NCBI RefSeq assembly: GCF_001677475.2
Contig: NZ_CP015229.1
Strand: one strand, 5' to 3'
DNA from: Escherichia coli
Lineage (GTDB): Bacteria; Pseudomonadota; Gammaproteobacteria; Enterobacterales; Enterobacteriaceae
DNA: 64,000 bases
Shown here: in pieces, positions 1 through 11,810 of the stretch
How the letters are laid out: every line of letters begins with the position of its first letter
Position numbering within the stretch: the first letter of the stretch is position 1
The notes under the pieces: generated by a model
The model's database searches: none
Told to the model about the DNA's origin: nothing
What the model saw: the letters and a program-made list of their open reading frames with translations, nothing else
Translations under genes and position numbers: made by a program

Positions 1-1022
1 GGAGCCACTGGAGCTGGATGCGGGTTGTTCTGGGTGGTGAGAGCTTCTCTGCTCTGGCTGAAGGCCTGCAGGAAGCCCTCGGACAACTGGGCGGAGTGCC
101 GGTAGAACATAAAACGGACAGCCTGAGGGCAGCATGGAAACAACAGGGCGAAGATGGACGCCGCGAGCTGACTGAGCGTTATGCTACTCTCTGTCAGCAC
201 TACGGAATGCAGGGCGTACACAATAATGCCGGTCGGGGCCACGAAAATGGCTCGGTTGAAAGTGCCCACGGACATCTGAAAAGGCGTATCTGTCAGGCGC
301 TGATACTGCGGGGCAGTAACGACTTCAGCACCATAGAAGAATATCAGGCCTTCATCACTCAGCAGGTTATGCGGCACAACCGTAACAATCAGGATCTGGT
401 CAAGGAAGAACGTCTTCATCTGAAACCGCTGCCGCTTCGTCGCAGTGCTGACTATGATGAGCTGACTGTGAGGGTTAGTCGCAGCAGTACCATCAATGTG
501 AAGCACGTCGTCTACAGCGTACCTTCCCGGCTTGTAGGTCAACTGTTACGGGTCAGGTTATGGGACGATCGTCTGAGCTGTTACGTTGGCAGCAGCGAGG
601 TCATGAGCTGCCCTCGCGTCAGACCAGAAAAAGGGAAGACGCGGGCCCGTCGTATCGACTTCCGACATGTGATCGACAGTCTGGCAAAAAAGCCCGGTGC
701 GTTCTGCCATGCAACGCTGAGAAATGACATCCTGCCGGACGATGAATGGCGGAGGCTGTGGCGTCGCTTATGTAATCATCTGGAGCCCGATATGGCAGGA
801 AGGCTGATGGTACATGCCCTGAAACTGGCTGCAGGATACGACGATATCTCAGTCGTGGCAAAAGGTATGGAGCAGATGCTGAATACCCCGGGAAACGTGG
901 ATCTGCACCGGCTGATGCGCTTCCTGGGTATAAAAGAAAAGGCGTTGCCGGTAGTCAATGTGATACAGCATAACCTGAGCAGTTATGAGCAACTACTGCG
1001 TGGCAAGGGAGGTTCGCAGTGA
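1..1022 (+). CDS. istA: IS21-family transposase IstA (5' partial, open to the window edge)
   Basis: Frame is open from position 1; C-terminal transposase-like region; stop overlaps the istB start (GTGA), the classic IS21 arrangement. Confidence 0.8.
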   Translation, partial: SHWSWMRVVLGGESFSALAEGLQEALGQLGGVPVEHKTDSLRAAWKQQGEDGRRELTERYATLCQHYGMQGVHNNAGRGHENGSVESAHGHLKRRICQALILRGSNDFSTIEEYQAFITQQVMRHNRNNQDLVKEERLHLKPLPLRRSADYDELTVRVSRSSTINVKHVVYSVPSRLVGQLLRVRLWDDRLSCYVGSSEVMSCPRVRPEKGKTRARRIDFRHVIDSLAKKPGAFCHATLRNDILPDDEWRRLWRRLCNHLEPDMAGRLMVHALKLAAGYDDISVVAKGMEQMLNTPGNVDLHRLMRFLGIKEKALPVVNVIQHNLSSYEQLLRGKGGSQ

Positions 1023-1774
1023 GCAATATCCATCACCTTGAACATAGCCTGCGTAAACTACGCCTGACACGAGTTGGAGCTGAATGGCACGCTCTGGAAA
1101 AACGAGCGCTGGCAGAAGGCTGGACACCATCGCGCTATCTTCTGACGCTATGCAATGAAGAACTCCTGTGGCGCGAGAGTGAAAAACTGCGTCGTTATAA
1201 AAAGGAGGCCCGGTTGCCAGTTGCCAAAACGCTGAGCGAATACGACTTCAGTCAGGTGCCGGAACTGAATGGAGCTCAGTTCCGGCAACTCTGTGAAACG
1301 ACAGACTGGGTTGATGCAGGAGAAAACGTTCTGCTGTTCGGAGCCAGCGGGTTGGGGAAAAGCCATCTGGCGGCAGCGATCGTGGATGGCGTAGTAGGTC
1401 AGGGCTACCGGGCCCGGTTCTACAGCGCAGGAGAGCTGTTGCAGGAACTACGTAAAGCCAGAGCTCAGTTGAAACTGAATGAGCTGCTACTGAAACTGGA
1501 TCGCTACCGGGTGATAGTGGTGGATGATCTTGGCTATGTCAAACGCGATAGTGCCGAAACGGGTGTGCTGTTCGAGTTAATAGCGCATCGCTATGAACGT
1601 GGGAGCCTGGTGATAACCAGTAACCATCCGTTCAGCATGTGGGGCAGCATCTTCGTGGATGAGACTATGGCGGTGGCTGCGGCAGACAGGCTGATCCATC
1701 ACGGATATATGTTCGAACTGAAAGGGGAAAGCTACAGGAAAAAGACAGCGAAGGCAGTAACAAGCGCGACTTGA
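1019..1774 (+). CDS. istB: IS21-family helper ATPase IstB
   Basis: 251 aa with Walker A motif GASGLGKSHLAAAI and Walker B-like VIVVDDLGY; GTG start overlapping the istA stop. Confidence 0.85.
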   Translation: MSNIHHLEHSLRKLRLTRVGAEWHALEKRALAEGWTPSRYLLTLCNEELLWRESEKLRRYKKEARLPVAKTLSEYDFSQVPELNGAQFRQLCETTDWVDAGENVLLFGASGLGKSHLAAAIVDGVVGQGYRARFYSAGELLQELRKARAQLKLNELLLKLDRYRVIVVDDLGYVKRDSAETGVLFELIAHRYERGSLVITSNHPFSMWGSIFVDETMAVAAADRLIHHGYMFELKGESYRKKTAKAVTSAT

Positions 1775-1839
1775 TGTCGCCCTGAAGGGTGCGGCCAGTA
1801 TAGTTGGCGCGAGTCGGCAAAACTAGTTGACGTCTAATA

Positions 1840-2375
1840 GTCAAGGGATGATCGTGTGGAACAAGCAAACTATGGTGCCAACGAAACCACGGGAAGGCGA
1901 CGAGCTGCGGGTCATTACTCAAACGCTCGCTGGCGATACCAATATCAGCTTCACCATTTTGCAACAACGTCGCAATTTCCTGTGGCGTCCCCTGGATTAG
2001 CTCGAGCCGAACCTCCGGGAAAAGTTCGCGAAAAGCTTTAATGACCTCTGGCAAGCTATAACGTGCCTGAGTATGCGTCGTTGCAATAGTGAGAACGCCA
2101 GACGTATCGTTGGTAAACAGGTCTGCAAGCCGACGAACATTACTGGCTTCATTCAGAATACGTTCTGCAATGACCAGTAATGCTTTGCCCGGTTCAGTCA
2201 TGCCCAGCAGTCTCTTACCTCGTCGAACAAATATTTCGATGCCAAGTTCATCCTCCAGTTCCCGAATATGACGGCTGACGCCTGACTGTGAGGTAAAAAG
2301 CATATTCGCAACCTCTGTCAGGTTGTAATCCTGACGTGCAGCTTCGCGGATTATCTTTAGTTGTTGGAAATTCAC
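1840..2375 (-). pseudogene. cbl: cbl (LysR-type regulator of sulfonate utilisation) truncated by the IS insertion; first ~179 codons intact
   Basis: N-terminus MNFQQLKIIREAARQDYNLTEVANMLFTSQSGVSRHIRELEDELGIEIFVRRGKRLLGMTEPGK... matches Cbl as I recall it through ...LVPHDHPLT, then reads into IS-derived sequence. Confidence 0.8.
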
Positions 2376-2476
2376 GGTAAACTCCGGGCAGTTCAGATAT
2401 CCCGTTATTGTTAAAGTCTAATGCCCGGCATAACAAATAATAAAAACCCGCATCTTATTCCATCCCGATATAACGC

Positions 2477-3394
2477 TTAGCTCACCAATTGCCACTGCCT
2501 TTTTTCCATCACTGGAGAACTAATCACTGACATTAACAACTCTTTCACTGCTTGCGCCTGTGGTGATAAGTTCGCTCTGGCGGGTAAATTTAATGACAAA
2601 GAGAGACTCATGGAAGGTGTGGTAATGCGTGACATCCACCCGTTTACTGCGCCACATAACGAACGCGCGGCCGATTCGGGTAATACTGCAACGCCCATGC
2701 CGCTGGCAATCGCTGCGGTAAGCGTGGCAATAGACTCAATTTCACCAATGACTTTTGCCGTGAGCCGCCGTAGGGAAAAAGCCTCATCAACACGAAGTCT
2801 AATAGCACTGTAATCACTGGGGAGAAAGAGGTTCATTTGCGCAATAGCATTAACATCAACGCTTTGCCCCGGGCAATCTTGAGTTCCTACCAGGAAAAGA
2901 TCTTCTTTCAGCAAAGCCTGACTGGATACACCAGCCACAGGGGAATGCTCATAAATCACCGCCATATCGAGTTGATGATTTATCAGTTTTTCGTTAAGTA
3001 CTGCACCGCTATTTTCATGAAGATAGATAACGATCTCCGGGAATTCAGCGCGAACCGCCTGTAATAAGGGCATGGTGATGGATGACGCTGCGGTTCCTGG
3101 CGCAAAGCCAATCGAGACTTGCCCCGATAATGCCTGACCAACGTTATGCACCGCCAGTTGGGCCTGCTCACACTGACGTAAAATGGCCCGCGCATGGGTA
3201 TAGAGAATTTTTCCGGCGTCTGTTGGCGTAACGCCCCGTTTTGTGCGAATCAAAAGTTGTTGATTTAACTCACCTTCCAGTGTGGCAACCTGCTGACTGA
3301 GCGCTGGTTGTGCGATATGCAATACTTCAGCAGCCTGGGTCAGGCTACCAATATCTACAATTTTTACGAAGTATTTCAGGCGTCTGAAGTTCAT
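2477..3394 (-). CDS. nac: Nitrogen assimilation control protein Nac (LysR family)
   Basis: MNFRRLKYFVKIVDIGSLTQAAEVLHIAQPALSQQVATLEGELNQQLLIRTKRG...; tracker ORF starts 10 codons earlier, true start taken at MNFRR. Confidence 0.9.
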   Translation of the reverse strand: MNFRRLKYFVKIVDIGSLTQAAEVLHIAQPALSQQVATLEGELNQQLLIRTKRGVTPTDAGKILYTHARAILRQCEQAQLAVHNVGQALSGQVSIGFAPGTAASSITMPLLQAVRAEFPEIVIYLHENSGAVLNEKLINHQLDMAVIYEHSPVAGVSSQALLKEDLFLVGTQDCPGQSVDVNAIAQMNLFLPSDYSAIRLRVDEAFSLRRLTAKVIGEIESIATLTAAIASGMGVAVLPESAARSLCGAVNGWMSRITTPSMSLSLSLNLPARANLSPQAQAVKELLMSVISSPVMEKRQWQLVS

Positions 3395-3450
3395 GTTGCC
3401 TCCGGTGTTTAAGAATCGGCACAAGTGCCGCCATTACTTACAACCAGAGT

Positions 3451-3466
3451 GCAAGATGCTTGCCAG
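3451..3466 (-). promoter_or_regulatory. sigma-54 (-24/-12) promoter of nac
   Basis: Minus strand reads TGGCAAGCATCTTGCA (GG-N10-GC) about 56 bp upstream of the nac start. Confidence 0.6.
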
Positions 3467-3580
3467 TTTTATTTTGGCGTTGATGTACAAGCTAACCAGC
3501 TGTCAAATAAGAGATTATGATAGATTCGTCATTGGCTCCTTTAATCAGCTGTCGCGTTCCCCTGCCCTATAAAAGGAGGG

Positions 3581-3597
3581 TATGCACCACGATGGTT
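3581..3597. promoter_or_regulatory. Putative NtrC binding site upstream of nac
   Basis: TGCACCACGATGGTTCA resembles the NtrC consensus TGCACCA-N3-TGGTGCA. Confidence 0.45.
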
Positions 3598-3720
3598 CAT
3601 TACCCAATAAGATTGAAAGCTCACCACTTTGTTGAAATTGACAGCAAACAAACAAAAAAATGCATTTCACCCTTTGACATCACCATGCACTGCCATTAAT
3701 ATGCGCCCCGTTCACACGAT

Positions 3721-3796
3721 TCCTCTGTAGTTCAGTCGGTAGAACGGCGGACTGTTAATCCGTATGTCACTGGTTCGAGTCCAGTCAGAGGAGCCA
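3721..3796 (+). tRNA. asnV: tRNA-Asn (anticodon GUU)
   Basis: 76-nt sequence TCCTCTGTAGTTCAGTCGGTAGAACGGCGGACTGTTAATCCGTATGTCACTGGTTCGAGTCCAGTCAGAGGAGCCA with cloverleaf and CCA end. Confidence 0.97.
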
Positions 3797-3802
3797 AATT
3801 CA

Positions 3803-3830
3803 AAAAAGCCTGCTTTTAAGCAGGCTTTTT
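3803..3830 (+). terminator. Rho-independent terminator after tRNA-Asn
   Basis: Hairpin AAAGCCTGCTTTTAAGCAGGCTTTTT followed by a T-run. Confidence 0.8.
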
Positions 3831-3851
3831 GCTTTGTAATTACCAACGCTC

Positions 3852-4787
3852 TTAAAACATCTGTCTTGAACCAGAACTAATTTGCACAGGCATTCCCGAT
3901 CGTCGTTGCAACGCAGCATTTGCGCGATTTACATCAACTTCTTGCCCGTTGATAAACGCCCGCAAAGATGGGGTTACCGGCAATGGTACTTTTCGGTCAG
4001 ACTCATATTCTGCACGATTGCGCGACAGCGGCTCATGAACTTCCAGCCACTTTGAACCATCCGGTTCCGTTGTGTATTTCACTGGCTGATCAATAATTTG
4101 AACACGAGTACCTACAGGAACATTATCAAACAGATATTTGATATCGTCATTGCGCAGACGAATACAGCCCTGACTTACCCGGAGCCCAATACCAAAATTG
4201 GCATTGGTACCGTGGATGGCATACAACCTGCCAATATAAATCGCGTACAGCCCCATGGGATTATCGGGACCCGCAGGAACAAATGCGGGCAAACTCTCCC
4301 CTCGTTTCGCATATTCGCGCCGAGTGTTCGGCGTTGGCGTCCAGGTTGGAGCTTCTTGTTTACGTTCAACGGTAGTCACCCAGTTACGCGGGGTTTCTCG
4401 CCCAGCCTGGCCGATACCAATAGGAAAGACTTCCACAGTATTACTGTCTGGCGGGTAGTAATAAAGACGCATCTCAGCGACGTTAACCACAATCCCTTTA
4501 CGAACAGTGGCGGGCAAAATCAGTTGCTGCGGAATGGTGAGTTGTGAGCCAGACTTCGGTAAAAAAACATCAGCGCCCGGATTCGCTTCCAGCATATTAC
4601 TTAACCCTTGCCCGTATTGTGCGGCAAAAGTCTCCAGCGGCTGAGTATTGTGATTAGGAACAGTTACAGTAAGCGACTGCCCCACTAAACGGCTACCCTC
4701 TGGAGGTAATGGATAAGTTACCGCCAGGCTATTTTGGCTGGCAAAAAGCAGAGCAAATGAGCAAAGAATATTTACACGACGCATCAT
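3852..4787 (-). CDS. ldtA: L,D-transpeptidase LdtA (ErfK)
   Basis: 311 aa with signal peptide and YkuD-type L,D-transpeptidase domain, matching ErfK as I recall it. Confidence 0.9.
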
Positions 4788-4848
4788 GTCCCTTTCCTAA
4801 GTCGCGAATACTATCCGATAAGTATAGCTTTTATCAGAATTTTCGTTT

Positions 4849-5928
4849 TTAGCTGTTCAAATCAGAAGTCGTATTCCCCGGTAGAACAATATTACTGGCA
4901 GCAAGTTCGCCCATGTTGTTGTATATCGCACAAGCAGCTTCGATGATGGGCATCGCCAGAGCTGCACCACTCCCCTCACCTAAACGCATATCCATATTGA
5001 GATAAGGCTCCAGCCCCAAATGCGACAGCGCTATACGCGCGCCTTTTTCTGCCGACAAGTGAGAAGGAATGAGATACGGTTTGATTGCAGGAGACATCTG
5101 GTAGGCTGCGAGCGCAGCAGCATAAGAAAGAAATCCATCCAGCAACACAGGTAAACCGCAGGAAGCAGCGCCTAACATCACGCCAGCCATTCCGACCAAA
5201 TCAAATCCACCCACTTTTGCCAGGACATCAACGCCATCCTGAGGATTTGGTTTATTCAACGTAATCGCCCGGCGCACAACATCAATTTTATTAGCCAGTT
5301 TATCTGTCGGCAGGTTTGCGCCAATCCCAACCACTTCTTCAGGATCCCGGCCAGTGATTGTGCTGACTATTGCCGCTGCCGGTGTCGTGTTTGCCATCCC
5401 CAGTTCACCTACACCAAACAGCGTGACACCGTTTTTTGCCAGCTCCCGCGTATAACATATGACGTCCAAAAGCAACTTTTCAGCCTGACGGCGACTCATT
5501 GCCGGAGCTGAAGCAATATTGCCGCTACCTCGTGCGACACGCATGTTGATAAGCCCGGGGATAGGCTTAGCAGTATCAATACCAACATCAATTACGTGGA
5601 CGTTAGCGCCCGCTTGTGCTGCCAGCACACACACGCCGGTTGTTCCGCGGGTCATATTTTCAGCCTGAATGGCTGTCACTTCTTTTGGGGAAATAGCGAC
5701 CCCTTCCTCCCAGACGCCGTGATCGGCACACATAACCAGTACTGCTTTTTTGCCCACATGCGGTATGCCATTCAACCCCGGCATTCCCGCCAGTTGTATG
5801 GCAAGCGCCTCCAGCCTTCCCAGGCTACCAACAGGTTTGAGTAACCCGTCGATATGCCGTTGTGCACGCGACATAGCGGCAGGATCGATGGCAGGGATCG
5901 TATTCAGTAAATCGGCAAGTGTTTGCAT
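4849..5928 (-). CDS. cobT: Nicotinate-nucleotide--dimethylbenzimidazole phosphoribosyltransferase
   Basis: 359 aa CobT family ([40 protein letters not shown]...). Confidence 0.93.
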
Positions 5929-6683: not shown

Positions 6684-7225
6684 TTGATTTTTACTCCAAT
6701 ACCCGAAACCACCAGCCATACTTCATTTGCCGCAGCGGCCAGCTGCTGATTTACCCGCCCGGCAATATCACGAAAATGTCGTGCCAGACGACTCTCCGGC
6801 ACAATCCCCATACCCACTTCGTTAGTCACTAATACAACCTTTGCGGGGCAACGTTGGCAGGCAGTAATCAACGACTGAATCTCAGCATTAATCGCCTGTT
6901 CCATCACCTGATAATCCCATTCATCAGGGTCTTTATCGCCGCCATAATCAAACAACAGATTAGTCACCATTGTGGTAACGCATTCCAGCAACACAGCCTC
7001 ATTCGGGTTAATGTCTGCATGAATTAATTCATCAAGATGTTGCCAGCGCTCCACTGTGCGCCAGTGCGCCGGGCGGCCTTGCCGATGATGTTCTATCCGT
7101 GCAGCCATCTCATCATCAAGGATTTGCGAGGTGGCGATATACAGAACCTGTGAAGAGTCCCCAATAAGCGCCTCTGCGTGGCGACTCTTCCCGCTCCGTG
7201 CGCCCCCCGTCACCAAAATCATCAT
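6680..7225 (-). CDS. cobU: Adenosylcobinamide kinase / adenosylcobinamide-phosphate guanylyltransferase
   Basis: 181 aa, P-loop [18 protein letters not shown]; overlaps the cobS start. Confidence 0.93.
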
Positions 7226-7358
7226 ACCGACTCCTGATTCATTTGTATGATGGTATTCATTGAACAGAACAATGGATCCCCCACCGTTGCTGACCGCAAA
7301 ACATTTACGCGATTAATACTGCGCGTAATATAATTAAAAATCCAGTATTCTCAATCCA

Positions 7359-7796
7359 TTACGAAAGAAGATGGCATTGCGGGATAGCCAGACTTCCTCG
7401 TGTTAACGTCCGACAAAATGCGTCATTGACAGCGGTTTCTCTGGCATGACAGATTTCATTCAGATAATGGATTAATGCTGCAGCCCCACCAGCCGGACCA
7501 GTCAGCAAACGGGCATTGTGTTCTGCAATCAAAATTACCGTCGTTCCCTCAGAATGAGCGAGCCATTCTGGTACAGATATCTCGCTTTCAGCTGCTATCA
7601 ATAGCAGCACTGAATAATCGCTATATGCATCTGATAACGATTGCACAGGCCCACCGTCAAAAGGCTGGAAATCTTGCTGCCAGTCCTCACCAACAAAACA
7701 GGTTATTGGCAATATTTCAGCCAGATGTTTCGCCAGGTCCACATCTCCAGATAAGAGGCAAAAAAGAGCTATCGATTCGGGTTTTATCGTTTTCAT
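7359..7796 (-). CDS. Hypothetical protein (145 aa from MKTIKPES; tracker ORF begins earlier at a GTG at 7865), function unassigned
   Basis: ORF between the cobalamin riboswitch and cobU on the same strand; GGAGGG Shine-Dalgarno 9 nt before the ATG; I cannot match it to a Cbi/Cob family. Confidence 0.45.
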   Translation of the reverse strand: MKTIKPESIALFCLLSGDVDLAKHLAEILPITCFVGEDWQQDFQPFDGGPVQSLSDAYSDYSVLLLIAAESEISVPEWLAHSEGTTVILIAEHNARLLTGPAGGAAALIHYLNEICHARETAVNDAFCRTLTRGSLAIPQCHLLS

Positions 7797-7899
7797 GCCC
7801 CTCGCCCTCCACTTAATTTCCTGTAATGGCGGTCTGGTTGATAAGCCATGAAACAAGATTGCCACACCTTAAGTGCAGCCCTGGTGCCTGTCGGCACTG

Positions 7900-8170
7900 C
7901 GATGAAAGAACTAAATGATGCCGCCATACCCTGATCCTTTCAGGGTGGTAGGGGTATAAAGACGCGCCTGTACTCTACCTGACGCTTCCGGGCAACCCAC
8001 TTCCCACCGAAGTTGTTGGTATTGACTGACTGGCTGGTCTTCTGGCTTAGCGTCATCCTCACCCGACCTTCCCAATCTCGCGATCAGTGGCATTTTCGGG
8101 TTTGTCAGCATTACAGCAGCGGGGGCTGCGAGGGATTTTCACCCTCTTCCCAGGCACAAATGTGCCACAC
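7900..8170 (-). promoter_or_regulatory. Cobalamin (adenosylcobalamin) riboswitch, cob-operon leader type
   Basis: Minus strand reads ...GCCTGGGAAGAGGGTGAAAATCCCTCGCAGCCCCCGCTGCTGTAATG...GCCACTG...GGGAAGG...AAGCCAGAAGACCAGCC (B12-box) = conserved cobalamin aptamer core. Confidence 0.85.
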
Positions 8171-8277
8171 CTGTCAGCGTATGTTATGAGCTGATTTCAC
8201 TTTTCCCATAACAGGTAAATAACGTTAATTATTCATTCCAGCGTTTATTTAAACCTTCCCTTTTTTTAGCATTTACT

Positions 8278-9192
8278 CTATACCGTTTCCATCGCCGCAT
8301 TTTCACTCACTTGCTGTCGATACACCTGCGGCGTAACCTGATAAGTCTGACGAAAAACTTTGCAAAAATAACTGGTTTGTGAAAAACCTAAATTACGCGC
8401 AATGCTGGCGATGCTCCAGTCGCTATGGCACAGTAACTCACGAGCGCTGGCCATCCGTTGTTGGTTTACCCACGCATTAAACCCGATTCCATGGTATTTC
8501 TTGAATAACTTACTGAAATAATAAGGGCTTAGATAAACATGCGAGGCGACATCTTCCAGACGCAAATCGTCTGATAAATGCGCATCAATATAGCGTAAAG
8601 CTTTTTTCATTTTATTGTCGTGGGGACCAGGCGCACGAGTCTGGCGCACCGAATCTGACTGAGATTTGTTCTCTTTAATAACCACAAAATTGAGTTGTTT
8701 TTTGAGGCAATTTTCTACAATCAACTTCAACAAATCAGCAGAGGCCATAACTCTTGAGTAATCCATCTCAGGGACTTTGCGAAATTCATTAAGTAATTCG
8801 GGATCTGCCTGCCAGCAATCATCGACATTCAGAATATCGACCAAATCGACATCATCATTACGCAGACGAACTTGCCCGCACAATACAAAACCGACTAAAT
8901 GCCCGGCGATTACCAGTGGAATAGAGAAATCGGTTAATCCGGCATGACAGCGATAAATACAAGGCTGATCGGATTTAGAGGCTTCCAGGCCCCCACAACG
9001 ATCGCTCATGCGACATCGAGTGCTTAGCTGAGGGTGTTGCCGCATCAACTGACAAAATGGAGTGAAGTTAAACAGCTCGGAAATTTCATCGCCGTGAATA
9101 TTGACCACGACAACCGCAAGGCTGGTCGCCTGCGCAAAATCCTGCGCGATTTTATTAATGAGTTCTGAATTAAGTGTCGCCGCAGAAATCAT
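8278..9192 (-). CDS. pocR: AraC-family regulator of the pdu/cob regulon
   Basis: 304 aa; C-terminal AraC-type HTH; matches Salmonella PocR as I recall it. Confidence 0.9.
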   Translation of the reverse strand: MISAATLNSELINKIAQDFAQATSLAVVVVNIHGDEISELFNFTPFCQLMRQHPQLSTRCRMSDRCGGLEASKSDQPCIYRCHAGLTDFSIPLVIAGHLVGFVLCGQVRLRNDDVDLVDILNVDDCWQADPELLNEFRKVPEMDYSRVMASADLLKLIVENCLKKQLNFVVIKENKSQSDSVRQTRAPGPHDNKMKKALRYIDAHLSDDLRLEDVASHVYLSPYYFSKLFKKYHGIGFNAWVNQQRMASARELLCHSDWSIASIARNLGFSQTSYFCKVFRQTYQVTPQVYRQQVSENAAMETV

Positions 9193-9394
9193 GATAAAAC
9201 CTCCCAGTTAATTTATTGTTATAGCAAAACAATTGTTTTACATTTAATCTTCACATCATCCTTGATGATTTACTGACGAGAAGCACAAAGGACAATAACA
9301 AAAGCCTCCGTGAAGCGGGAGACTTTTTAATAAGTTCGGAAAGCAGATCACAAACAGTAAAAAAATAAACGTTTATAACTGCCAGATTATTTCG

Positions 9395-10204
9395 TTATTC
9401 GCTGATTTCTTTAGGCGTTACACTATTGACAGGTAAATTCTTTGCAATGAGATAGCGATAAATCGCCGCACCAACACATGCGCCAATGATCGGTGCAATA
9501 ATGGGTACAATGAAATAAGGAATATTGCGTCCACCAGTCATCGCAATTTCCCCCCAACCCGCAAGCCAGGTGAAAAATTTAGGTCCAAAATCACGCGCTG
9601 GATTCATGGCAAAACCGGTTAATGGTCCGGTAGAAGCACCAATAACAGCAACCAGAATACCAATTAGTAAAGGCGCAAGCGGTCCTTTGGGTACGCCATT
9701 ACCGTCATCGGTCAACGCCATAATCAACCCCATTAACATGGACGTTATGACCACTTCGACCAACGCAGCTTGCCATACATTAATCGCCGCTGCCGGATAA
9801 GTACTGAAGATACTGGCGAGTTGTAAACTTTCTGCACTACCACGCACCATATTGTGAGCAGATTCAAAATCGGTAAACAAACTGCTGTATAGAGAATATG
9901 CCAGAACCGCACCACCAAAGGCACCCGCTAATTGCGCCACACAAAATGGCAGCACTTTACGGGCTGGGAAAGAGGCAAACAGCCACAGAGCAATGGTAAC
10001 TGCCGGGTTGAGATGAGCGCCGGAAATACCTGCCGTAAGGTAAACAGCAAGCGAAATCCCTAACCCCCAAATGATACAAATTTCCCACAGTCCCAGACTT
10101 GCCCCGGCAACTTTCAGGGCGCACAAACAACCAATGCCAAAAAAGAGGAACAGTCCGGTGCCTAAAAACTCGGCAACGCATTGCGCCTTGAGTGAATCAT
10201 TCAT
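9395..10204 (-). CDS. pduF: Propanediol diffusion facilitator (MIP/aquaglyceroporin family)
   Basis: MNDSLKAQCVAEFLGTGLFLFFG...; two NPA motifs (HLNPAVT, MNPARDF); start taken at MNDSL. Confidence 0.9.
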   Translation of the reverse strand: MNDSLKAQCVAEFLGTGLFLFFGIGCLCALKVAGASLGLWEICIIWGLGISLAVYLTAGISGAHLNPAVTIALWLFASFPARKVLPFCVAQLAGAFGGAVLAYSLYSSLFTDFESAHNMVRGSAESLQLASIFSTYPAAAINVWQAALVEVVITSMLMGLIMALTDDGNGVPKGPLAPLLIGILVAVIGASTGPLTGFAMNPARDFGPKFFTWLAGWGEIAMTGGRNIPYFIVPIIAPIIGACVGAAIYRYLIAKNLPVNSVTPKEISE

Positions 10205-10716
10205 AGTGACACCTTCTTTACGGAGTTTTTCTTTATCAGCCAACTATGCGCTGATTGTTGTGTATATCGAGCGCAACTATAAAAAATTGCTCTGCAGAAA
10301 ATATTGCCAACATGCATGACAGACTCGTGTAAAAATCGTTCTAACATAGCAAATTATTGTCATTGCCGAAGCATGCAACACAGCGTTAATCAGTGTTGAA
10401 AGTAATAATTACTGTCAAACTTTCACAATAAAAAATTGTCATCATGATATAATAAAATTTAAACAAATATCACAATTCCCTTCCGCCAACCAAACCCAAC
10501 GAAATTTTATCCGCGATTAACCCCCTCAACCAACGCAATTAATTCACATTGAAACATCCACAAAATAACCAAGAAATTAATAACATATAGTTTATAAAAG
10601 CAATTTTATAATATTTGCCCTCTATTAATTTTTCTCATTAGCCGATTAAGTCAGCCATTCTTTTTCCTCGCTTTTTTTTATAGTCATATCGTCAAAAAAA
10701 TCCAGGCGAGGTCTTT
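10205..10716. promoter_or_regulatory. Divergent pduF / pduA control region
   Basis: 512-bp AT-rich intergenic region between divergent pduF and pduA with direct repeats of CAACCAA-like motifs. Confidence 0.6.
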
Positions 10717-11001
10717 ATGCAACAAGAAGCGTTAGGAATGGTAGAAACCAAAGGCTTAACTGCCGCCATAGAGGCCGCAGACGCCATGGTGAAGTCGGCA
10801 AATGTTTTGCTGGTCGGCTACGAAAAAATAGGTTCCGGGCTGGTGACAGTCATCGTTCGTGGTGATGTCGGGGCGGTAAAAGCGGCAACAGACGCAGGTG
10901 CCGCAGCTGCGCGTAACGTCGGCGAAGTAAAAGCCGTACACGTTATTCCCCGCCCACATACCGATGTCGAAAAAATCTTACCAAAGGGAATTAACCCATG
11001 A
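10717..11001 (+). CDS. pduA: Microcompartment shell protein PduA (BMC-H)
   Basis: 94 aa [30 protein letters not shown]..., matching Salmonella PduA as I recall it. Confidence 0.97.
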
Positions 11002-11810
11002 GCAGCAATGAACTGGTCAAACAGATCATGGCGCAGGTCATCGCTCGCGTAGCGACGCCAGAGCATGAGGTTCTCCCGAAAACCACTCATCAAATACGAG
11101 AGACGGCTATGGCAGAAAAAAGCTGCACGTTAACAGAATTTGTTGGCACCGCTATTGGCGACACTGTAGGTCTGGTCATTGCGAACGTTGATAGCGCCCT
11201 GTTGGACGCGATGAAACTTGAAAAACGCTATCGTTCCATTGGCATTCTGGGTGCGCGTATTGGCGCAGGGCCACACATTATGGCCGCTGATGAAGCGGTA
11301 AAAGCCACCAACACTGAAGTTATTAGCATTGAACTTCCTCGGGATACTAAAGGCGGTGCCGGACATGGCTCATTGATCCTCTTAGGTGGCAACGATGTTT
11401 CCGACGTGAAACGCGGTATTGAAGTCGCCCTGAAAGAACTCGATCGGACCTTTGGCGATGTCTATGCCAACGAAGCCGGACATCTTGAGCTGCAATATAC
11501 CGCCCGCGCCAGCTATGCACTGGAAAAAGCGTTTGGAGCACCATTGGGACGGGCTTGCGGCGTTATTGTCGGCGCTCCGGCTGCGGTGGGTGTTCTGATG
11601 GCCGACACCGCGCTGAAGTCCGCCAATGTGGATGTCGTGGCATACAGCTCCCCCGCTCAAGGCACCAGCTACAGCAACGAAGTCATTCTGATTATCTCGG
11701 GTGACTCCGGCGCAGTCCGCCAGGCGGTCATCTCCGCACGCGAAATCGGTAAAACCGTGCTTTCGACTCTCGGCGATACACCGAAAAACGATCGCCCTTC
11801 CTACATCTGA
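10998..11810 (+). CDS. pduB: Microcompartment shell protein PduB (tandem BMC); internal PduB' start near 11109
   Basis: 270 aa [14 protein letters not shown]... with internal start [14 protein letters not shown]. Confidence 0.95.

Follow-up and report, generated by a model that had tools for sequence, protein, structure and literature searches.

Comparison of the spacer between pduF and pduA with its orthologues suggests that it consists of two mirror-image PocR-type promoter modules around a poorly conserved centre of ~200 bp, and that the CAACCAA words in this centre are chance products of its C/A-rich composition and not operators; we give these two statements jointly a probability of roughly 0.8. 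Each module would comprise a GCAAT..TTG box ~80 nt upstream, a GCCA..TTTT block over the -35/spacer region and a TATAGT -10 hexamer. The region itself is already known: it is the Escherichia form of the pduF-pduA divergent control region of the cob/pdu regulon, whose Salmonella counterpart was reportedly the subject of Chen et al. 1994, 1995. It therefore has little weight as a discovery, being the expected and previously studied pdu switch.

The pduF-pduA spacer and its orthologues

The whole stretch of DNA that we analysed (the window) is 64,000 nt long. Positions 10205-10716 are the entire 512-bp spacer between the divergent pduF and pduA genes, as judged from the list of open reading frames and from Pfam, and these limits, which the preliminary description had given, are exact: pduF starts at 10204 (-) and pduA at 10717 (+). 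The spacer and the genes around it are as follows.

8278-9192 (-): pocR, intact, with a PocR sensory domain and an AraC-type HTH (Pfam), downstream of pduF
9395-10204 (-): pduF, encoding a 269-aa MIP-family channel
10205-10716 (unstranded): pduF-pduA intergenic control region, 512 bp, G+C 0.33, flanked by PduF (MIP) and PduA (BMC)
10717-11001 (+): pduA, encoding a 94-aa BMC-domain shell protein

The list of open reading frames also places pduB, pduC and further pdu genes 3' of pduA. An annotated E. coli homologue, with a spacer 96% identical to this one, shares the gene order, which in that genome runs cobT-cobS-cobU, a remnant ORF, a cobalamin riboswitch, pocR, pduF and then pduA-pduB-pduC. 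The gene order (a MIP channel gene and a BMC shell protein gene diverging, with pocR beyond pduF), the intact PocR and the orthology with Salmonella all agree with the identification as a divergent pduF/pduA control region that had been made from the sequence at first sight. The region had also been called AT-rich with poly-T/A tracts, and this holds: G+C is 0.33 overall and 0.29-0.38 locally, compared with ~0.5 in the flanks, and there are runs of T8 (10672-10679) and A7 (10694-10700).

Of 5426 complete E. coli genomes, 640 contain the spacer, at an identity of 92-96%. The best identity in that set was 96.1%, and the pdu allele of the window is not represented in it; for the flank at 1-5900, which carries cobT, ldtA, nac and cbl, many E. 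coli genomes reach 98.3%. PocR of the window is 99% identical to that of a contig (L002) binned in a 'Citrobacter sp.' gut MAG, which also contains a second contig (L016) with a Citrobacter-type pocR; the bin holding both contigs is probably mixed.

We collected orthologues by a PocR search using one genome per species, which gave 77 loci from which 61 pduF-pduA spacers were extracted; four further E. coli spacers brought the set to 65. Conservation was analysed position by position in the 42 Enterobacteriaceae spacers that could be aligned (Escherichia, Citrobacter, Salmonella, Klebsiella, Phytobacter and relatives). The Salmonella loci are those of S. enterica subsp. diarizonae and arizonae, subsp. 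enterica being absent from the set; the cob promoters of these two subspecies match LT2-derived primers with 0-3 mismatches. Spacer length is kept at 509-531 bp in the 42 spacers; in sequence the Escherichia type is only ~55% identical to those of the other genera. Nine Escherichia relatives have spacers 83-96% identical to that of the window, and among the resulting 10 Escherichia sequences variation is very uneven, with 41% of sites variable in the centre and 3% in the Ppdu core (1/36 sites at 10649-10684). A simple promoter/terminator scan of the spacer gave one weak minus-strand match, which is no more than shuffled sequences gave, and an Rfam scan of 7000-11500 at E<=1 gave no match within the spacer.

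PocR-type boxes and promoter layout

In Salmonella, MBP-PocR shifts a fragment from upstream of pduA, and PocR acts on promoters upstream of pduA and of pduF (PMC10433801). With PocR binding the Salmonella orthologue and acting on both sides there, and with PocR intact here, the earlier expectation that both promoters are under PocR control is plausible. According to Rondon & Escalante-Semerena 1996, as relayed in PMC11264322, PocR footprints at the cob promoter define two boxes, 20 and 48 bp long and separated by 52 bp, both of which are needed. At Ppdu two candidate boxes that resemble them, with similarities of 80% and 56% and 215 bp between them, act as PocR-dependent roadblocks, one extra candidate box was reported to be non-functional, and the interaction of PocR with its promoters was stated to remain unclear (PMC11264322).

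We placed the cob boxes in the Salmonella loci by means of the published primers of PMC11264322 and this second-hand geometry, so that their borders are ones that we infer. On this placement cob box I lies at TAGCAATATTTTGCTATTGC, immediately behind the pocR stop, and cob box II starts at AACAATAAATTGTCATAGCGC; it is these two sequences that are conserved as blocks in the Pcob of 20 species. A 22-nt matrix was then trained on the cob boxes only (consensus TAGCAATAATTTGTTATAGCGC). Its top match in the 64-kb window lies inside the spacer, at 10347-10368 (+), where TAGCAAATTATTGTCATTGCCG scores 18.7 bits (P=0.0005 in 2000 spacer shuffles); a second match on the other strand, at 10341-10362 (-), scores 9.7 bits, and the two together make up box A. 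The position aligned with 10347-10368 is matched in 42/42 spacers, at up to 30.7 bits. The spacer therefore holds a sequence that resembles the footprinted PocR boxes, with box A matching both TAGCAATATTTTGCTATTGCC and ACAATAAATTGTCATAGCGC of Salmonella cob boxes I/II. The comparison, which covers ~60 species, gives a concrete consensus for the PocR box, approximately TAGCAATAATTTGTTATAGCGC, and together with the shared promoter layout described below it could guide footprinting and biosensor design. The elements on the pduF side are the following.

10206-10215 (-): pduF ribosome-binding region, AAGGTGTCAC, nearly invariant across 42 spacers
10235-10255 (-): conserved inverted repeat/hairpin in the predicted pduF leader (AUCAGC...GCUGAU), 6 pairs by RNAalifold
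10276-10281 (-): predicted -10 hexamer TATAGT of the pduF-proximal PocR-type promoter, start predicted near 10269
10297-10311 (-): conserved core block upstream of the pduF -10, GTTGGCAATATTTTC (GTTGCCAACAATTT in other genera)
10341-10368 (unstranded): PocR-type box A with palindromic core GCAA-N-TTG, the best PocR operator candidate, proximal, pduF promoter
10423-10447 (-): PocR-type box B, candidate distal box of the pduF promoter, AATAAAA.ATTG conserved, -1.5 bits in the window

The sequence ACTATAAAAA at the pduF -10 is invariant or nearly so in the 42 spacers, and its hexamer is the same as that of Ppdu. The pduF core block lies as far from the -10 as do the CAGCCATTCTTTTT block of Ppdu and the CACCAGTTTTTATTT block of Pcob. 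Box A is the counterpart of Ppdu box I ('80% similar'), where PMC11264322 observed a PocR roadblock. The position of box B scores 8-22 bits in many other genera and, where it is the top match, lies 158-159 nt upstream of the pduF -10. A further nearly invariant element, AAAAATCGT at 10331-10339 (ACGATTTTT on the pduF strand), occurs ~58 nt upstream of the pduF -10, and CTATT(A)TTTTT, which is similar to it, occurs ~57 nt upstream of the Ppdu -10.

The inverted repeat at 10235-10255 has a variable 11-nt loop, and one compensatory change, from a CG to a UA pair, separates the Escherichia clade from the other genera. This folding was run on a core group of genera; in a wider leader alignment including Yersinia, Hafnia, Brenneria and Tolumonas no structure was found, because the leader lengths differ. 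The repeat could be a 5' hairpin of the mRNA or a protein-binding DNA palindrome. The elements on the pduA side are the following.

10533-10554 (+): conserved block D, ACGCAATTAATTCACATTGAAA, candidate degenerate distal PocR-type box of Ppdu
10598-10619 (+): PocR-type box C, AAGCAATTTTATAATATTTGCC, candidate proximal box of Ppdu, degenerate in the window (-1.8 bits)
10652-10669 (+): invariant Ppdu core block, CAGCCATTCTTTTTCCTC, 18 nt, -35 and spacer region
10679-10684 (+): predicted Ppdu -10 TATAGT, with the T8 run just before it, start predicted near 10691
10685-10716 (+): pduA leader, Shine-Dalgarno GAGG at 10708-10711, A7 run, GCGAGGTCTTT conserved

The core block CAGCCATTCTTTTTCCTC is identical in most Enterobacteriaceae spacers and has no more than two mismatches in the Yersinia, Brenneria and Tolumonas spacers in which it was found; both it and TATAGT are the same in Salmonella, Citrobacter and Klebsiella. 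Across genera the Ppdu -10 is kept as TATAGT or TATATT. Box C lies within or adjoins the Ppdu 'box II' of PMC11264322. Within it, GCAATTTTATA is 80-100% conserved in the aligned spacers, and its position scores 11-15 bits in Yersinia, Hafnia, Brenneria and Mangrovibacter, so that it is by position and conservation only that box C is put forward as a PocR-type box in the window. By the matrix, box A is the only confident candidate for a PocR box in the window, boxes B, C and D scoring below zero bits.

When the promoters were aligned on their -10 hexamers, one layout proved common to Ppdu, the pduF-proximal promoter and Pcob. The hexamer is TA(T/C)AGT at all three, and a (C/T)(A/T)GCCA..TTTT block begins 27 nt upstream of it. 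The distance from the PocR-type box to the -10 is 80-81 nt at the pduF promoter in 48/54 spacers, 79-83 nt at Ppdu in 31/58 spacers and 79 nt at Pcob. On the pduF side the module would be formed by (i) box A at 10341-10368, (ii) the core block at 10297-10311 and (iii) the -10 at 10276-10281, and would drive a pduF-pocR transcript, giving positive feedback. On the pduA side it would be formed by (i) box C at 10598-10619, (ii) the invariant block at 10652-10669 and (iii) the -10 at 10679-10684, and would drive the pdu operon. PocR with 1,2-propanediol would occupy box A (with or without B) and box C (with or without D) and recruit RNA polymerase, activating two promoters with weak -35 regions; the weaker distal boxes B and D and an IHF-like site may assist. 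Occupancy of the boxes in this organism is here deduced from sequence, and the Salmonella literature describes propanediol- and PocR-dependent transcription from both sides (PMC10433801, PMC11264322). The transcription starts near 10269 (-) and 10691 (+) are predicted from the -10 hexamers only. Our literature search gave no usable mapped start sites for pduA or pduF, and the second pduF promoter reported in Salmonella was not located by this analysis of the spacer.

The Salmonella equivalent of the pduA leader (-44 to +38) binds CsrA (PMC10433801). The leader of the window has no GGA, the Salmonella and Klebsiella leaders having CGGGAA or CGGAAC at the aligned place; a GGA persists at pduA codons 7-8 (10736-10738). 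CsrA control may be different in the Escherichia type.

The C/A-rich centre and the CAACCAA words

Three features of the centre bear on the alternatives to the two-module reading, together with block D.

10476-10570 (+): Escherichia-specific C/A-rich, G-poor central segment, C 36%, G 6%, GC skew ~-0.58
10485-10501 (+): motif 1, GCCAACCAAACCCAACG, no function supported, matrix score -6.8 bits, 6/17 sites variable
10525-10539 (+): motif 2, CTCAACCAACGCAAT, no function supported for its CAACCAA part, 7/15 sites variable

Motif 2 overlaps block D by its last 7 nt only, and a first alternative is that nothing but this tail matters, i.e. that ACGCAAT opens a degenerate distal box D which cooperates with box C as cob box I does with cob box II. 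GCAATTAATTCACATT in block D is invariant in the 10 Escherichia sequences, members of the Phytobacter/Kosakonia group reach 12-13.5 bits at the aligned position, and its distance of ~145 nt upstream of the Ppdu -10 is comparable to the 155 nt of cob box I. However, block D itself scores -5.7 bits in the window, a match to the matrix is seen in a minority of genera only, and one extra candidate box at Ppdu, which could be this or another, was non-functional in PMC11264322. We regard a working box D as an unlikely but reasonable proposal.

The segment at 10476-10570 cannot be aligned with the other genera, where 36 non-Escherichia spacers share invariant TGTCAC and ATGTAAAT(ATGGAAT) elements at this place. 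The Escherichia segment, including AACCAAAC and CAACG(A/C)AAT, might on this account be a site for a lineage-specific factor, or a structural element, which has replaced TGTCAC/ATGTAAAT; the strong strand asymmetry of 10476-10570, the invariance of parts of the centre in the 10 Escherichia sequences and the maintenance of spacer length across genera are all compatible with such a role. Against it, the Escherichia sequences differ from one another by only 4-17%, so that the invariance of short words says little, no part of the spacer varies more than the centre, no known motif was matched (CRP, IHF, Rfam), and the repeat statistics given below are at chance level. We consider this very improbable. 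A stronger version, in which the Escherichia-type control region has been rewired, with the cob promoter and the central elements lost and a different lineage-specific regulator binding the C/A-rich words (AACCAAAC, and CAACG(A/C)AAT twice, 34 bp apart), seems less probable still.

Our preferred reading of the centre, as chance sequence between two modules, is borne out by the statistics of the repeats. The preliminary description had quoted motifs 1 and 2 as direct repeats; both strings are present as given, but their repetition does not go beyond chance expectation. In the 64-kb window there are 13 copies of CAACCAA, 12.5 being expected. Within the spacer there are 26 repeated 7-mers compared with 20.8 +/- 5.2 in dinucleotide shuffles, CAACCAA being just one of them; longer repeats are present, and the best pair of 15-mers matches at 13/15 positions where the shuffle mean is 12.4. 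Post hoc, CAACCAA did appear enriched against shuffles of the whole spacer (P=0.005), as did CCAAC (5 copies, 0.66 expected). This enrichment vanishes when 10476-10570 is shuffled alone, because its local composition is then respected: the P values become 0.66 for a repeated 7-mer, 0.12 for the 10/11 pair CCAACG(A/C)AATT and 0.79 for three copies of a 5-mer.

The two motifs had further been proposed as PocR operator half-sites for both promoters, and there is something to be said for this: PocR binds the Salmonella orthologue of the fragment that contains them, their spacing of 40 bp puts them on the same face of the helix, and the word is enriched when the whole spacer is shuffled. The remaining evidence is all on the other side. 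The motifs score -6.8 and -5.7 bits with the cob-box matrix and share nothing with Salmonella cob boxes I/II, by whose matrix boxes B, C and D are degenerate as well. The pair of CAACCAA words was found in none of the 65 other orthologous spacers, nine Escherichia relatives and Salmonella included, and a lack of conservation was what the preliminary description had itself named, together with a lack of PocR binding, as refuting its proposal. In the nine Escherichia relatives the word in motif 1 reads GAACCAA, AAACCAA or GAACTAA, and that in motif 2 reads CAGCCAA, TAGCCAA, TAGACAA, TCCCCAA or TATCCAA; with 35% and 47% of their sites variable within Escherichia, compared with 41% for the centre, the motifs change as fast as neutral-looking spacer. 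The distance from the Ppdu -10 to the start of the word is 192 nt for motif 1 and 152 nt for motif 2, and from the pduF -10 it is 206 and 246 nt, respectively; these are not the box positions of PocR-dependent promoters (~80 nt, or ~145-158 nt, from the -10), the ~80-nt position being shared by all three promoters. PocR of the window is 86-91% identical to the Salmonella and Citrobacter proteins, which makes a changed specificity unlikely. The half-site proposal is therefore hardly tenable; the CAACCAA repeats are not worth pursuing as PocR sites, and the useful outcome here is a negative one.

Other regulators, known systems and neighbouring loci

Control of both promoters by CRP and IHF had also been expected, and we scanned the spacer for their sites.

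10470-10474 (unstranded): invariant TCACA, identical in 42/42 spacers, a single good CRP half
10567-10582 (unstranded): weak IHF-like matches, AACCAAGAAATTA / TATTAATTTCTTG, one mismatch to WATCAANNNNTTR, scan near chance

The CRP consensus gave one match in the spacer, at 10459-10474, with 3 mismatches, which is the level of chance; the conserved TCACA words were considered as CRP half-sites and rejected because the matches are too weak, as was block D as an ArcA-like site. Crp control has been placed on the expression of pocR and not directly on Ppdu (PMC4245221), and both Crp and ArcA act largely via pocR expression (PMC4245221, PMC3075218), which agrees with our finding no good CRP site between pduF and pduA. 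In the pduF-pocR spacer, upstream of pocR, TGTGATCTGCTTTCCG at 9337-9352 (-) has a perfect CRP left half-site and a poor right half; the left half-site fits the reports of Crp acting on pocR expression. The literature on the Fis and ArcA regulons gave no site in this spacer.

An IHF match with at most 1 mismatch lies 101-102 nt upstream of the Ppdu -10 in 23/58 spacers and is perfect in Salmonella; at this distance the window has 2 mismatches to the consensus. IHF may bend the DNA just upstream of box C.

In Salmonella enterica the order pocR, pduF and divergent pduA is the same, and the spacer is 524 bp long compared with 512 bp here. The two forms share the 18-nt Ppdu core block and TATAGT, which are identical, the conserved box A, and the pduF ribosome-binding site and leader hairpin. 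They differ in overall sequence (~55% identity), in the central ~60 bp, which is replaced here by the C/A-rich segment without TGTCAC/ATGTAAAT, in the IHF-like site, which is degenerate here, and in the GGA missing from the pduA leader here. The neighbouring Pcob promoter and the cbi genes of Salmonella, Citrobacter and Klebsiella are also missing here. None of the differences from the form found in these three genera supports the half-site idea.

Promoters of AraC-family activators, e.g. araBAD, have promoter-proximal and distal sites. The present system has in common with them an AraC-type HTH joined to a ligand-binding domain, sites by a weak -35 and an A/T-rich divergent spacer, but the PocR boxes are unusually far apart, a pattern that has been called distinct from other AraC-family activators (PMC11264322).

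On the other side of pocR, a full cobalamin riboswitch (RF00174, 109.5 bits, 8015-8189, -) comes only 88 bp after the pocR stop (8278). In Salmonella, Citrobacter and Klebsiella pocR is followed by the PocR-dependent cob promoter with its two boxes; at 7359-8277 this promoter is missing. Beyond the riboswitch come, in this order, a 168-aa ORF with no Pfam match, for which E. coli GF4-3 has the annotation 'cobalamin biosynthesis protein', and cobU-cobS-cobT. The cbi genes have thus been deleted and the riboswitch retained. The pduF-pocR spacer, for its part, contains at 9253-9336 (+) an Rfam match to the enterobacterial sRNA STnc230, of which our literature search found no usable mention; the match scores 76.3 bits, above the gathering score, and lies on the strand opposite to pduF and pocR.
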